A stretch of DNA of 4,496 nucleotides from a virus. Its lineage: Duplodnaviria; Heunggongvirae; Uroviricota; Caudoviricetes. Shown here in pieces: positions 289 to 2,279 of this stretch (within the stretch, counting starts at the first letter, position 1; every line of letters begins with the position of its first letter). Position numbers and translations under genes: made by a program. The notes beneath the pieces are model-generated. The model worked only from the letters and a program-made list of their open reading frames with translations. It was not told the DNA's origin and searched no databases. The DNA is taken from the IMG/VR virus record IMGVR_UViG_2740892234_000016. The stretch is one strand, 5' to 3'.

Positions 289-965
289 CACCAGAAATTA
301 TCCTACAACGTACCGGGATCGACGTGAGAGGTGTCGAGCAGGGAGATTATGCATGGCAAAAATTACGGCTCGGGGTCATCACAGCTTCAGAAGTTCACAA
401 CGTGATAGCCAAACCCCGCTCCGGAAAGAAATGGCCTGACATGAAAATGTCCTACTTCCACACCCTGCTGGCTGAGGTCTGCACGGGTGTGGTCCCGGAA
501 GTTAACGCCAAAGCCCTGGCATGGGGAAAACAGTACGAGAACGACGCCAGAGCCCTGTTTGAGTTTACTTCCGGCGTGAATGTTACTGAATCCCCGATCA
601 TCTATCGCGACGAAAGTATGCGTACCGCCTGCTCTCCGGATGGATTATGCAGTGACGGCAACGGCCTTGAGCTGAAATGTCCGTTTACCTCCCGGGATTT
701 CATGAAATTCCGGCTCGGTGGTTTCGAGGCCATAAAATCGGCTTACATGGCCCAGGTGCAGTACAGCATGTGGGTGACGCGAAAAGATGCCTGGTACTTT
801 GCCAACTATGACCCGCGTATGAAGCGTGAAGGCCTGCATTATGTCGTGGTCGAGCGGGATGAAAAATACATGGCTGGTTTTGACGAGATGGTGCCGGAGT
901 TCATCGAAAAAATGGACGAGGCACTGGCTGAAATTGGTTTTGTATTTGGGGAGCAATGGCGATGA
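285..965 (+). CDS. exo: Lambda-type 5'-3' exonuclease (Red-alpha / Exo), 226 aa, full length
   Basis: The 226-aa ORF ([65 protein letters not shown]...GEQWR) is near-identical from memory to phage lambda exonuclease and has the same length. It is start/stop coupled to bet. Confidence 0.93.
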
Positions 966-1119
966 AGCATCCTCACGATAATATCCGGGTAGGCGCGATC
1001 ACTTTCGTCTACTCCGTTACAAAGCGAGGCTGGGTATTTCCCGGCCTTTCTGTTATCCGAAATCCGCTGAAAGCCCAGCGGCTGGCTGAGGAGATAAATA
1101 ATAAACGAGGGGCTGTATG
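849..1119. repeat. Direct repeat copy A (exo 3' end + orf60a), paired with 1375-1644
   Basis: By eye this aligns with 1375-1644 at a constant offset of 526 nt, with scattered substitutions and one 1-nt indel near the 3' end (roughly 90% identity). Similarity ends at the ATG of the next gene. Confidence 0.85.
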
Positions 1120-1144
1120 CACAAAGCATCTCCTGTTGAGTTAA
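956..1144 (+). CDS. Small hypothetical protein, lambda orf60a-like (62 aa)
   Basis: [65 protein letters not shown] lies immediately downstream of exo, overlapping its 3' end by 10 nt. Position and size match the lambda orf60a slot. Confidence 0.65.
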
Positions 1145-1308
1145 GAACGAGCATTGAGATTGCACATAGCCTTGCTCAAATTGGAGTCAGGTTTGTGCCA
1201 ATACCAGTAGAAACAGACGAAGAATTTCATACGTTAGCCGCATCCCTTTCACAAAAGCTGGAAATGATGGTGGCGAAAGCAGAAGCAGATGAGAGAGACC
1301 AGGTATGA
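1117..1308 (+). CDS. Small hypothetical protein, lambda orf63-like (63 aa)
   Basis: [66 protein letters not shown] is preceded by a GAGGGG ribosome-binding site at 1107-1112. Its stop overlaps the next ATG as ATGA. It matches my memory of lambda orf63. Confidence 0.68.
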   Translation: MHKASPVELRTSIEIAHSLAQIGVRFVPIPVETDEEFHTLAASLSQKLEMMVAKAEADERDQV

Positions 1309-1364
1309 CAACCACTGAATGCATTTTTCTGGCAGCGGGCTTCATATTCTGTGTGCTTATGCTT
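1305..1364 (+). CDS. 5' fragment (20 codons) of a small hydrophobic ORF, cut off by the assembly gap; copy of the ORF at 2196-2279
   Basis: ATG at 1305-1307 overlaps the orf63 stop. It translates MTTTECIFLAAGFIFCVLML and then runs into the N run. It is 59/60 nt identical to 2196-2255. Confidence 0.35.
1305..1364. repeat. Direct repeat, 60 nt, paired with 2196-2255 (59/60 identical)
   Basis: The two 60-nt stretches differ at one position (ACT versus ACG, codon 4). Identity begins exactly at the ATG; the sequence upstream of each copy is unrelated. Confidence 0.85.
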
Positions 1365-1374
1365 NNNNNNNNNN
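1365..1374. other. Assembly gap (10 consecutive N)
   Basis: There is a run of 10 n characters in the sequence. The ORF-track products containing X (1319-1507 + and 1227-1697 -) are artefacts of reading across it. Confidence 0.99.
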
Positions 1375-1491
1375 ATTGAGCGGAATGAAAAGTACATGGC
1401 GAATTTTGACGAGATGGTGCCGGAGTTCATCGAAAAAATGGACGTGGCACTGGCTGAAATTGGTTTTGTATTTGGGGAGCAATGGCGATGA
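1375..1491 (+). pseudogene. exo: 3'-terminal fragment (38 codons + stop) of a second, diverged exo gene, truncated at the gap
   Basis: Translating in frame from 1375 gives [38 protein letters not shown] then a stop. The full exo at 285-965 ends [39 protein letters not shown]. The differences are spread through the fragment, so this is a homologue rather than an exact duplicate. Confidence 0.7.
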
Positions 1492-1644
1492 AGCATCCTC
1501 ACGATAATATCCGGGTAGGCGCGATCACTTTCGTCTACTCCGTTACAAAGCGAGGCTGGGTATTTCCCGGCCTTTCTGTTATCAGAAATCCACTGAAAGC
1601 ACAGCGGCTGGCTGAGGCGATAAATAATAAACGGGGGCTGTATG
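1375..1644. repeat. Direct repeat copy B (exo 3' end + orf60a'), paired with 849-1119
   Basis: See copy A. Copy B is bounded on the left by the N gap and on the right by the ATG of the methyltransferase gene. Confidence 0.85.
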
Positions 1645-1649
1645 ACTGA
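1482..1649 (+). CDS. Second orf60a-like small protein (55 aa), diverged paralogue of 956-1144
   Basis: Hand translation gives [55 protein letters not shown]. It has the same frame relationship to the exo' fragment as orf60a has to exo. It is absent from the ORF track because it is under 60 aa. Its C-terminus differs from copy A because of a 1-nt indel near 1633. Confidence 0.55.
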
Positions 1650-2199
1650 TTTCACCGGAAGCAATACTCCTGCCGAACATCGCGACAGCTGGCGCACACC
1701 ACCAGAGATTTTTGCTGCGCTTAATGCAGAGTTCGTTTTTCAACTTGATGCTGCCGCCAGCGAAAAAAACCGACTATGTCGGCTTTTTATCTCACAGGAG
1801 CAGAACACATTAACCACTTCATGGCCTGAAGCAATGGGATATGCCTCTGGTTATGTCTGGTTGAATCCACCATACAGCAATATTTCCCCTTTTGTGAAAA
1901 AGGCAGCCACTGAAAACAAATTCAGTAGTGTGGGATGTGTAATGTTATTGCCTGCTGACACATCTGTCGGATGGTTTCATGAAGCGATACAAACCGCCAG
2001 TGAGGTCAGATTCATCACGGCAGGACGACTGGCATTTATTAACCCACTCACTGAGAAACCCGTCAGTGGAAATAATAAAGGCTCGATGCTCATTATCTGG
2101 CACCCATACCCCCGTACACACTGCCACTTTACGACCGTTGATCGTGGAGAGTTGATGGCGTTCGGCTCAAGGATTCTTGCCCGTCGGGAGGCTGCATGA
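1642..2199 (+). CDS. Phage Dam-type DNA N6-adenine methyltransferase (185 aa), orphan (no restriction enzyme partner in the window)
   Basis: It carries an NPPY motif (VWLNPPYSNISPF), the catalytic motif IV of amino-methyltransferases. The N-terminal region WRTPPEIFAALNAEFVFQLDAAAS is typical of the small phage-borne Dam-like family. It has a G-rich ribosome-binding site at 1633-1637 and its stop overlaps the next ATG. Confidence 0.82.
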   Translation: MTDFTGSNTPAEHRDSWRTPPEIFAALNAEFVFQLDAAASEKNRLCRLFISQEQNTLTTSWPEAMGYASGYVWLNPPYSNISPFVKKAATENKFSSVGCVMLLPADTSVGWFHEAIQTASEVRFITAGRLAFINPLTEKPVSGNNKGSMLIIWHPYPRTHCHFTTVDRGELMAFGSRILARREAA

Positions 2200-2279
2200 C
2201 AACCACGGAATGCATTTTTCTGGCAGCGGGCTTCATATTCTGTGTGCTTATGCTTGCCGACATGGGACTTGTTCAATGA
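2196..2279 (+). CDS. Small hydrophobic peptide (27 aa), possible membrane micro-protein
   Basis: It translates MTTTECIFLAAGFIFCVLMLADMGLVQ and is overlapped as ATGA on both sides (methyltransferase stop at 2197-2199, next ATG at 2276-2278). Its first 60 nt are duplicated at 1305-1364 with one synonymous change. Confidence 0.35.
   Translation: MTTTECIFLAAGFIFCVLMLADMGLVQ

Follow-up and report, generated by a model that had tools for sequence, protein, structure and literature searches.

Alternative genes at the orf63 position of lambdoid prophages, read from a probable scaffold join of two Escherichia coli prophages

The 4,496-nucleotide stretch of viral DNA analysed here (the window) holds two closely similar copies of a sequence that runs from exo through orf60a to a start codon, and each copy leads into a different gene: a 63-amino-acid ORF (orf63) in copy A and a 185-amino-acid Dam methyltransferase in copy B, both followed by the same small ORF. 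This arrangement raises the question of whether the two genes are alternative occupants of one slot, how they came to occupy it, and whether the two copies stand side by side in one genome at all.

A direct repeat of 260 nt links 852–1111 to 1378–1637 at 96% identity, and gapped alignment stretches it to 852–1119 versus 1378–1644 (~96%, with a single 1-nt indel at 1108). A further repeat, in the small ORF, matches 1305–1364 to 2196–2255 at 59 of 60 positions, counted from the A of the ATG. The best direct repeats after these measure only 14–20 nt, and the occurrence of 260-nt and 60-nt repeats at 96–98% identity within 4.5 kb excludes chance. Between the copies, positions 1365–1374 read NNNNNNNNNN; copy A stops there and copy B starts directly after. 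Because the copies abut this run, the outermost homologous positions (849/852 and 1364) mark contig ends and not biological boundaries.

Each half of the window has a 99.9% identical counterpart in the complete E. coli 2013C-3264 genome. Window 1–1364 corresponds to NZ_CP027544.1 1019826–1021189 with 1 mismatch, and window 1375–4496 to 4447725–4450846 on the other strand with 2 mismatches. The matches lie 3.4 Mb apart in two prophages with different integrases, one at mlrA (locus L003) and one at argU (locus L004). In the mlrA prophage, copy A runs on through the rest of the small ORF into orf61 and then an Ea22-like gene, and in the argU prophage full exo, bet and gam genes precede copy B. 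Halves of such identity in two prophages 3.4 Mb apart argue for a scaffold join and not a tandem repeat. Judged from this near-identical complete genome rather than from the source reads, the window appears to consist of the exo–xis regions of two lambda-like prophages of one E. coli strain, joined across a 10-N gap. Prophage A has the canonical order exo–orf60a–orf63–small ORF–orf61, and prophage B the order exo–orf60a–Dam methyltransferase–small ORF–orf61. The features of the window are as follows.

1–288, + strand: bet (Red-beta recombinase), 3′ part, contig A; annotated as bet in the 99.9% identical L003 and supported by phage matches
285–965, + strand: exo (lambda exonuclease), copy A, part of the long left flank; a 226-aa ORF, lambda exonuclease family protein in L003
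962–1144, + strand: orf60a (DUF1317), full-length; PF07026, 1.8e-40, 60/60 profile positions; RefSeq CDS at L003 6962–7144
1117–1308, + strand: cassette 1, orf63 (DUF1382), the common slot occupant; PF07131, 1e-30; PDB 8DSB, 7.9e-33
1305–1364, + strand: 27-codon small ORF, copy A, first 60 nt, cut by the gap; 59/60 versus 2196–2255
1365–1374, no strand: run of 10 Ns, apparent scaffold gap between contigs of different prophages; the halves map 3.4 Mb apart
1375–1491, + strand: exo 3′ end, copy B, contig B starting inside exo; L004 exo CDS 5437–6117 corresponds to window 811–1491
1488–1649, + strand: orf60a (DUF1317), C-terminally shortened, ending LYD*, holding the presumed Shine–Dalgarno sequence of the cassette gene; PF07026, 1.7e-32, 50/60 positions; RefSeq CDS at L004 6114–6275
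1642–2199, + strand: cassette 2, phage N6-adenine DNA methyltransferase, 185 aa; PF05869, 2.3e-56, 168/169 positions
2196–2279, + strand: 27-codon hydrophobic small ORF (MTTTECIFLAAGFIFCVLMLADMGLVQ), start of the right flank; ATGA overlaps at both ends
2276–2491, + strand: orf61 homologue, 71 aa, right flank; phrog_303, 4.7e-36
2590–2808, + strand: orf73/TraR-DksA zinc-finger protein, within which the shared right flank stops (~2774); PF01258, 2.7e-9
2856–3134, + strand: DUF4222 protein, prophage B only; PF13973, 1.9e-19
3333–4496, + strand: tyrosine integrase (intD type) of the argU-integrated prophage B; PF00589, 5.2e-47; followed by tRNA-Arg and fimZ in L004

The initial annotation of this DNA overlooked the gap. 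The sequence similarity that it described stands, but the two copies are not neighbours in a genome. If the window were truly contiguous, it would represent one prophage with a partial tandem duplication (exo′–orf60a–cassette–small ORF, twice) bearing different payloads, with the Ns masking a short stretch. The record does list the two pieces in a single orientation and order, and ten Ns conventionally stand for a gap of unknown length. Tandem, highly similar prophages also occur in STEC (PMC6602927). However, the matching genome places the halves far apart, on opposite strands and with different integrases, and gives each copy its own continuation, downstream for copy A and upstream for copy B. 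In addition, none of ~280 related loci carries both cassettes or the N-joined structure, and contigs A and B meet the gap inside an inter-prophage repeat, which is where short-read assemblies break. With no uninterrupted sequence linking the copies and such a distance between the halves, we rejected the tandem duplication and consider a contiguous window improbable.

The scaffold join brings the two states of the slot together, and the comparison between them can be made directly in the two 2013C-3264 prophages. Alignment confirms the earlier observation that the left homology stops at the start codon of orf63 (1117) or of the methyltransferase (1642): the shared sequence ends GGGGCTGT-ATG, and this ATG starts both the 63-aa ORF (1117–1308) and the 185-aa ORF (1642–2199). 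By BLAST the two prophages have 2,853 bp of left flank in common, at 96.4% identity, and the last matching base of this block is the G of the ATG (window 1119). This break is the start codon for the cassette, yet it lies inside orf60a and trims its C-terminus. In the orf63 state the last 28 nt of orf60a overlap orf63; in the Dam state the junction replaces the C-terminal tail, so that orf60a lacks the last 10 DUF1317 model positions, and only copy A gives a full-length match to the family (60/60, against 50/60 for copy B). The cassette ATG lies 9–10 nt past the conserved AATAATAAAC, with a purine-rich, Shine–Dalgarno-like stretch at the end of orf60a at the usual spacing, presumably the ribosome-binding site of the cassette gene.

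The right junction is equally sharp. Both orf63 and the Dam gene stop in an ATGA that overlaps the start of the 27-codon ORF, and the near-identity described earlier does begin exactly at that ATG, upstream of which the sequences are unrelated (caggt versus gctgc). The right BLAST block starts on the A of this ATG (window 1305/2196) and extends for 579 bp at 96.2% identity, ending at L004 7400 (window 2774). Thus, for orf63 and Dam, both breaks fall exactly on ATGs. The orf61 protein WP_000188870.1 is encoded identically in both prophages. The small ORF has no RefSeq annotation at L003 or L004. Its ratio of synonymous to non-synonymous changes is 9:5 in its own frame and 3:11 in an alternative frame, its peptide is identical in 55 of 63 distinct DNA sequences, and the 84-nt stretch is 100% identical in phage lambda (30925–31008).

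The two occupants differ in kind. The orf63 product matches PF07131 over 60/60 positions (1e-30) and the NMR structure of lambda Orf63, PDB 8DSB (7.9e-33). The methyltransferase scores 190.5 bits against PF05869 (cutoff 28.1; profile positions 1–168 of 169) and 165.6 bits against the TIGR01712 equivalog (cutoff 97.05), and its catalytic (D/N)PPY motif is present as NPPY at residues 75–78 (...VWLNPPYSN...); a structure search returned no solved relative by sequence. By description it resembles the STEC orphan Dam methyltransferases M.EcoVT2Dam and M.EcoGV, likewise orphan N6-adenine enzymes on lambdoid E. coli prophages, and its target would be GATC by analogy with prophage Dam homologues that are reported to target this site (PMC6602927). 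Orf63 and Dam are not functional equivalents, and the slot carries non-essential accessory genes. Both states are also found contiguous in isolated phages with the same integrase, Dam in PhiR30_1 and orf63 in PhiR26_1.

We found that the slot has further occupants, which the initial annotation had suggested looking for. Across ~280 related loci, five types of gene begin at the same ATG: orf63, which is the majority, Dam, a DpdA-like gene (250 aa), a DndB/DGQHR-like gene (354 aa) and a gene with a PAPS-reductase domain (414 aa). The 250-aa protein matches phrog_887, labelled queuine tRNA-ribosyltransferase, and has no Pfam or NCBIfam match and no PDB relative by sequence; because only PHROG 887 names it, 'DpdA-like' is an annotation-level label. 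An anchor scan independent of the cassette yielded 119 loci, with ~84 carrying orf63, 14 Dam, 11 the DpdA-like, 5 the DndB-like and 1 the PAPS-reductase gene, and none of them had an empty slot in which orf60a is followed directly by the small ORF. Among 5,426 complete E. coli genomes, orf63 is carried by 2,947, Dam by 312, the DpdA-like gene by 100 and the DndB-like gene by 284, and orf63 is replaced by another gene in ~700.

The right ends of these cassettes are less orderly than the common left end. The DpdA-like breakpoint lies 18 nt inside orf61 and the DndB-like one in the last ~25 nt of orf61, and both cassettes leave a dead orf61 remnant. Start-codon precision therefore belongs to particular junctions and not to a dedicated cassette mechanism. 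Right breaks inside orf61 fit random joints filtered by selection, and they weaken start codons as a rule. The earlier proposal of modular exchange at gene boundaries is supported, with two refinements: on the left the break falls within orf60a, and on the right two of the cassettes, DpdA-like and DndB-like, break within orf61.

The flanks, by contrast with their contents, are kept: orf60a and the small ORF with orf61 recur in hundreds of phage and prophage loci, as the initial reading of orf63 and the methyltransferase as exchangeable payloads between conserved flanks would have it, and the panels of ~280 loci support that reading. The orf60a–Dam–small ORF arrangement is present in 64 of 80 Dam-anchored loci, with at least 3 integrase contexts downstream. 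Junction strings are uniform in 65 Dam and 58 orf63 loci, polymorphic Shine–Dalgarno variants are common to both up to the ATG, and the left flanks beside the Dam cassette, whose junctions are identical, range from 95 to 99%. Even less than 100 nt from the junction, SNPs in the flanks show almost no association with the type of cassette. In MAFFT alignments of two panels that were picked by different anchors and whose IMG/VR contigs are not independent samples, the largest SNP frequency difference on the left was 0.43, an approximate per-site value in an alignment that a small number of divergent rows had stretched to 820 columns for 703 nt, and on the right only 2 sites exceeded 0.6. So weak a linkage between flank polymorphisms and the type of cassette implies that crossovers have taken place repeatedly within the flanks.

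Mosaicism with joints at gene boundaries is a textbook property of lambdoid phages, and the slot has its hallmarks: non-homologous alternatives between conserved flanks, sharp transitions at gene starts (for orf63 and Dam), independent assortment of the same module in different backgrounds, and no specific recombination signals. We see no difference in principle; this is a clean, single-nucleotide case with five alternatives on one start codon and Shine–Dalgarno sequence, in which the left flank is the Red module itself (gam–bet–exo) and the left joint falls inside the coding sequence of the upstream gene. The slot is therefore clean but ordinary phage mosaicism. Illegitimate and homeologous Red-mediated recombination is the accepted account of such mosaicism, and Martinsohn et al. 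found that Red efficiently recombines diverged sequences (PMC2327257).

In our preferred account the orf63 position is a hotspot for gene replacement within the early-left operon transcribed from pL. At least five unrelated genes fill it in different prophages, and a payload would slot in with translation signals intact, through the common Shine–Dalgarno sequence and ATG and, for orf63 and Dam, the ATGA exit. Each novel joint would have been made once, by illegitimate or microhomology-mediated recombination, since the sequences have no more than ATG in common at the left joint and no more than ATGAC at the right, and would have survived because the operon was preserved. The cassettes may then have passed between lambdoid phages that reside in or infect the same cell, through ordinary homologous or homeologous recombination in the long flanks, by Red or RecA, as the population-level signatures there would allow. 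The direction of change is indicated by orf60a, which covers the whole DUF1317 model only next to orf63, and by lambda itself, which is in the orf63 state. Taken as a whole, the explanation that joins a scaffolding of two prophages, a replacement hotspot at orf63 and cassette spread via the flanks is very probably correct.

Two other histories of the slot have to be set against this one. That five payloads start at exactly one ATG might suggest mobile cassettes of a dedicated site-specific mechanism (integron-like, homing endonuclease or transposon) targeting the start-codon region, and the ends of the Dam cassette, GGGGCTGTATGAC and GGAGGCTGCATGAC, do resemble each other (11/13 positions, including ATGAC), which could hint at a mechanism using short repeats. 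The shared end motif, however, is a Shine–Dalgarno sequence with a start codon and is explained by translation signals. Around neither cassette did we find inverted repeats, attC-like sites or target-site duplications, the flanks being the sole repeats, and no cassette contains or adjoins a gene for a recombinase or for an HNH or GIY-YIG protein; the sole integrase is that of the prophage, 1.1 kb downstream, and it differs among loci with the same cassette. Given also that right ends differ by cassette type, two of them lying inside orf61 with a dead remnant left, we rejected an integron-type or other site-specific cassette, for which we see next to no likelihood. It is also conceivable that each alternative state arose once and was then inherited purely vertically in prophage lineages, so that the slot is polymorphic without any exchange of payloads. 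Identity reaches 99% or more for Dam in 241 of 312 genomes and for the DpdA-like and DndB-like genes in every carrier, a uniformity compatible with a single recent origin of each. Vertical descent sits poorly, however, with a single Dam cassette whose identical junctions lie upstream of several integrase contexts and beside left flanks of varying identity, and with flank SNPs and Shine–Dalgarno variants that Dam and orf63 loci have in common up to the ATG. High cassette identity within more diverged, reshuffled flanks is instead a signature of recent horizontal spread, and we regard purely vertical inheritance as quite unlikely.

Replacement of a resident gene also sets the slot apart from classical morons, which come with a promoter and a terminator of their own and are additions between genes. 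Like morons and accessory hotspots, the slot bears non-essential payloads at a fixed position, several of them of DNA-modification or counter-defence types; the difference is that these payloads replace orf63 and use operon transcription and the resident Shine–Dalgarno sequence and ATG. A scan of 849–2279 detected no forward-strand promoter-like site in the cassettes, and the idea of a classical moron with an internal promoter was rejected on this ground. Terminator-like matches in the coding regions of the same interval are weak, one of them, in orf60a, being common to both copies, and no known RNA family reached its gathering score in the window.

In its genes, their order and pL-driven early expression, the locus corresponds to the exo–xis region of lambda and Stx phages (orf60a–orf63–orf61–orf73–ea22). 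This block has been called 'conserved and largely invariant' (PMC10869804, PMC8614690), whereas the orf63 slot is polymorphic here; none of the exo–xis papers that we searched mentions a methyltransferase at this position. The role of the alternative payloads is most likely early-expressed DNA modification. All alternative occupants found belong to DNA-modification-type families (Dam, DpdA/TGT-like, DndB/DGQHR-like and DndC/PAPS-reductase-like) and lie behind the same Shine–Dalgarno sequence and ATG, and for this reason we raise, as a tentative and rather doubtful idea, that the orf63 position is a hotspot dedicated to early-expressed genes of counter-defence or DNA modification. By position, Orf63, a puzzling protein described as 'pro-lytic', and perhaps the conserved peptide of 27 aa encoded after it could then also evade or manipulate host defence rather than regulate lysis–lysogeny as such.

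The main value of these results is corrective and descriptive. The apparent two-copy structure reflects a join of two prophages and calls for caution when reading draft prophage sequence. Within the 'largely invariant' exo–xis block, the orf63 slot is polymorphic and holds a DNA-modification-type gene in about one-eighth of complete E. coli genomes. Isogenic-like phage pairs such as PhiR30_1 and PhiR26_1 provide a natural, nucleotide-resolved set for the study of Red-mediated exchange and of the function of orf63 and its replacements.

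The window contains a direct repeat of 260 nt at 96% identity (852-1111 versus 1378-1637), which grows to 852-1119 versus 1378-1644 in a gapped alignment with a single 1-nt indel, at 1108, and a second repeat of 60 nt (1305-1364 versus 2196-2255) in which 59 of 60 positions are identical. The size of both repeats far exceeds chance. The sequence common to copy A, the exo/orf60a copy that leads to orf63, and copy B, which leads to the Dam methyltransferase gene, closes with GGGGCTGT-ATG. This ATG starts a 63-aa ORF in copy A (1117-1308) and a 185-aa ORF in copy B (1642-2199). Both ORFs end in ATGA, the ATG of which starts a 27-codon ORF (1305; 2196-2279), and upstream of this ATG copies A and B are unrelated. 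The initial annotation had described these repeats, the shared ATG, the ATGA overlaps and the 59/60 identity, and all of them are present in the window. The genes were identified as follows.

Genes identified in the window
962-1144 and 1488-1649: orf60a (DUF1317)
1117-1308: lambda Orf63 (DUF1382; PDB 8DSB at 7.9e-33)
1642-2199: phage N6-adenine methyltransferase (PF05869 at full length; TIGR01712 above cutoff; NPPY at residues 75-78)
2276-2491: orf61 homologue (phrog_303)
2590-2808: orf73/TraR-like
2856-3134: DUF4222
3106-3330: HTH excisionase-like ORF (HTH_17, 75 aa), just upstream of the integrase
3333-4496: tyrosine integrase

For the excisionase-like ORF, the RefSeq annotation of the matching genome has only a partial pseudogene of short length (7732-7797 of L004, the argU prophage locus of E. 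coli 2013C-3264).

Copy A ends at a run of ten Ns (1365-1374) that had escaped the initial annotation, and copy B starts immediately after it; where the homology stops on its outer sides is thus set by the contig ends. The counterpart of window 1-1364 in E. coli 2013C-3264 (NZ_CP027544.1) is 1,019,826-1,021,189, with one mismatch, in a prophage adjoining mlrA with the order gam-bet-exo-DUF1317-DUF1382-orf61-TraR-Ea22-like ... xis-int. Window 1375-4496 matches the opposite strand of the same genome at 4,447,725-4,450,846 with two mismatches, in a prophage adjoining tRNA-Arg and fimZ with the order gam-bet-exo-DUF1317-methyltransferase-orf61-TraR-DUF4222-intD. Copy A there runs on through the remainder of the small ORF into orf61, and the entire exo precedes copy B. 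The most plausible reading of the window is therefore that a scaffolder, or concatenation, linked two contigs, one from each of two prophages of a closely related strain. The break of each contig falls within sequence common to both prophages, and draft assemblies of STEC fail to resolve multiple similar prophages (PMC6602927). The N-joined structure was found in none of the ~280 related loci fetched, and no locus among those classified carried more than one cassette type.

Isolated phages show both states of the slot between orf60a and the small ORF in contiguous sequence. PhiR30_1 carries Dam, with 99.9% identity over 1375-4496; in PhiR26_1 and seven further records the slot is filled by orf63, and the integrase is the same as in PhiR30_1. 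We tabulated the slot occupant in three panels of related loci: exo-anchored IMG/VR loci (n=80), Dam-anchored loci (n=80) and loci anchored on the end of the left flank (n=119; pattern GGCTGAGNNGATAAATAATAAAC), the last being independent of the cassette. The flanks are kept and further cassette types begin at the same ATG, in line with the proposal that orf63 and Dam are alternative cassettes. Most exo-anchored loci have a 185-nt orf63 insert; a 250-aa protein (5/80) or a 354-aa protein (6/80) runs from the shared ATG in others, and 10/80 are without orf60a. The Dam-anchored panel has orf60a, Dam and small-ORF junctions in 64/80 loci, with at least three distinct integrase contexts downstream. 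Searches with the 250-aa protein hit phrog_887 'queuine tRNA-ribosyltransferase' (2e-98) but nothing in Pfam or NCBIfam; the 354-aa protein carries a DndB/DGQHR domain. Among the top matches listed in a census of 5,426 complete E. coli genomes, all cassette genes adjoin a DUF1317 gene.

Slot occupants in loci with the left-flank-end anchor and in complete E. coli genomes
orf63: ~84/119 loci, a few frameshifted; 2,947/5,426 genomes
Dam: 14/119 loci; 312/5,426 genomes
250-aa protein (DpdA-like): 11/119 loci; 100/5,426 genomes
354-aa protein (DGQHR/DndB-like): 5/119 loci; 284/5,426 genomes
414-aa PAPS-reductase-domain protein (PF01507): 1/119 loci

The locus with this fifth occupant (L168) carries the gene at 1902-3146 on the minus strand, followed at 657-1890 by AT-rich DNA with ORFs on the opposite strand (a membrane-like protein and SAM-methyltransferase-like gene fragments); the small ORF and orf61 are missing, and homology picks up again at orf73. 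Ten close relatives (L006, L008-L012, L028, L039, L043 and L069) are missing the entire orf60a-orf73 block; immediately after exo they have either a DUF4222 protein or unknown ORFs of short length, and then an excisionase-like gene and an integrase of the same intD type. Frameshifted or truncated alleles encode Orf63 of 39, 49 or 58 aa (L199, L211 and L198) and Dam of 170 aa (L271), which fits the idea that non-essential genes decay in resident prophages.

The initial annotation had placed the breakpoints at start codons, which holds for the joints of orf63 and Dam but not for the right joints of the 250-aa and 354-aa cassettes, which lie inside orf61; the left joint, at the start codon of the cassette gene, lies inside orf60a. 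The two 2013C-3264 prophages have 2,853 bp in common on the left at 96.4%, the last shared base being the ATG's G (window 1119), and 579 bp on the right at 96.2%, from the A of the next ATG (window 1305/2196) into orf73. The left flank is kept up to AATAATAAAC, followed by a purine-rich Shine-Dalgarno stretch of 8-10 nt (gaggggctgt, gggggctgt, ggggagctgt, gggaggcggt, gggagagtgt or aggaggatat) and the ATG; some of these variants are common to Dam and orf63 loci, so the homology reaches the ATG. The left joint is nevertheless not a clean gene boundary. With orf63, orf60a overlaps the cassette by 28 nt and 60/60 DUF1317 positions are matched; with Dam, orf60a stops five bases past the ATG and 50/60 are matched. 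This full match, together with the orf63 arrangement of lambda, suggests that orf63 is the older state of the slot. On the right, the joint of orf63 and Dam is at the small-ORF ATG; homology restarts 18 nt within orf61 after the 250-aa cassette, with the small ORF missing, and the DGQHR cassette leaves just the last ~25 nt of orf61, in a dead frame. Start-codon precision is thus a property of particular joints and not a rule of the slot.

Linkage between flank and cassette was assessed in distinct flank sequences, 40 from Dam loci and 46 from orf63 loci. Alleles at variable flank sites are nearly unassociated with the cassette carried, also within 100 nt of it: the allele-frequency difference is at most 0.43 in the left flank and exceeds 0.6 only at positions 12 and 95 of the right. 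Cassette identity is at least 99% in most genomes, and the flanks range from 95 to 99%. Such a pattern is expected of a recently spread module that has entered different backgrounds again and again by recombination in its flanks.

We take the positions of the joints and their uniformity as established; each joint would have had a single origin, by illegitimate or microhomology recombination. No inverted or direct repeats bound the cassettes in the window, no recombinase gene was found within or adjacent to them, and they contain no forward-strand promoter. The sequence common at the joints is only ~5 nt (ATGAC) on the right and ~3-4 nt (T-ATG) on the left. The 3' end of divergent Dam homologues from other phages is always ...GGGAGGCnGC-ATGA; the small ORF starts with ATGACAACC, and in most of these homologues the ATGA overlaps straight into an orf61-like gene starting ATGACnCC. 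In one locus, L162, the neighbouring gene is DpdA-like instead. There (1523-3780), a 502-aa C5-cytosine methyltransferase/Dam-like fusion leads, across the same ...GGGAGGCCGC-ATGA junction, to the 250-aa DpdA-like gene, and this locus could be a donor-type module, the source of both cassettes. Only joints preserving the Shine-Dalgarno sequence, start codon and stop/start coupling would have left a working operon, and later spread would have proceeded by homologous or homeologous recombination within the flanks. The Red module itself forms the left flank, and lambda Red is efficient at recombining diverged sequences (PMC2327257).

The 27-codon hydrophobic ORF (MTTTECIFLAAGFIFCVLMLADMGLVQ; also at 1305-1364 and at lambda J02459 30925-31008) looks from its sequence like a real gene. 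ATGA overlaps tie it to its neighbours on either side, 55/63 distinct DNA sequences encode one peptide, and the synonymous to non-synonymous ratio is 9:5 in its own frame versus 3:11 in the alternative frame (purifying selection). Lambda and the window are 100% identical here. RefSeq has no annotation for the ORF; in one record of phage 434 the same place is labelled 'putative membrane protein'. The annotated orf61 of lambda (J02459 30839-31024; 61 aa) starts inside orf63 and reads the small-ORF stretch in the frame without selection. Its poly-A run has an extra A (A7, versus A6 in 191/195 locus instances), which ends it early relative to the 71-aa form of almost all other loci (window 2276-2491). 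Reference lambda orf61 thus looks like a rare frameshift allele, one that goes unmentioned in a paper on orf61. Between orf61 and orf73, an ORF of 29-31 codons (MNMKSKIIRELQAPFLLFAFILKRINQQFRD; window 2488-2583) contains a terminator-like hairpin (2512-2530) with a T-run, and its peptide is kept even in the diverged locus L154; it may be the 31-aa peptide from lambda ribosome profiling (PMC8614690). Over the 84-nt small-ORF query, 100% identity to lambda, at lambda-like coordinates, was also seen in MW057783.1 ('Campylobacter phage CJLB-4', 48,361 bp, host Campylobacter jejuni), which may be a lambda contaminant or mislabelled record.

Mosaicism of lambdoid phages has been described for decades, and exchange at the slot is the same phenomenon. 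Prophage-borne Dam homologues are documented in STEC (PMC6602927). Transcription of the exo-xis region is early and driven by pL, and studies of it have dealt chiefly with effects on the lysis-lysogeny decision (PMC8614690, PMC10869804, PMC6213356), with orf60a-orf63-orf61-orf73-ea22 regarded as 'conserved and largely invariant' (PMC10869804, PMC8614690). The exo-xis papers searched make no mention of a methyltransferase in this slot, and we found no description of variation at the orf63 slot in the literature searched. Dam and the other replacements would most likely serve to modify phage or host DNA, with early expression. On positional grounds, the slot may be a hotspot for counter-defence or DNA-modification genes, with Orf63 belonging to the same theme.
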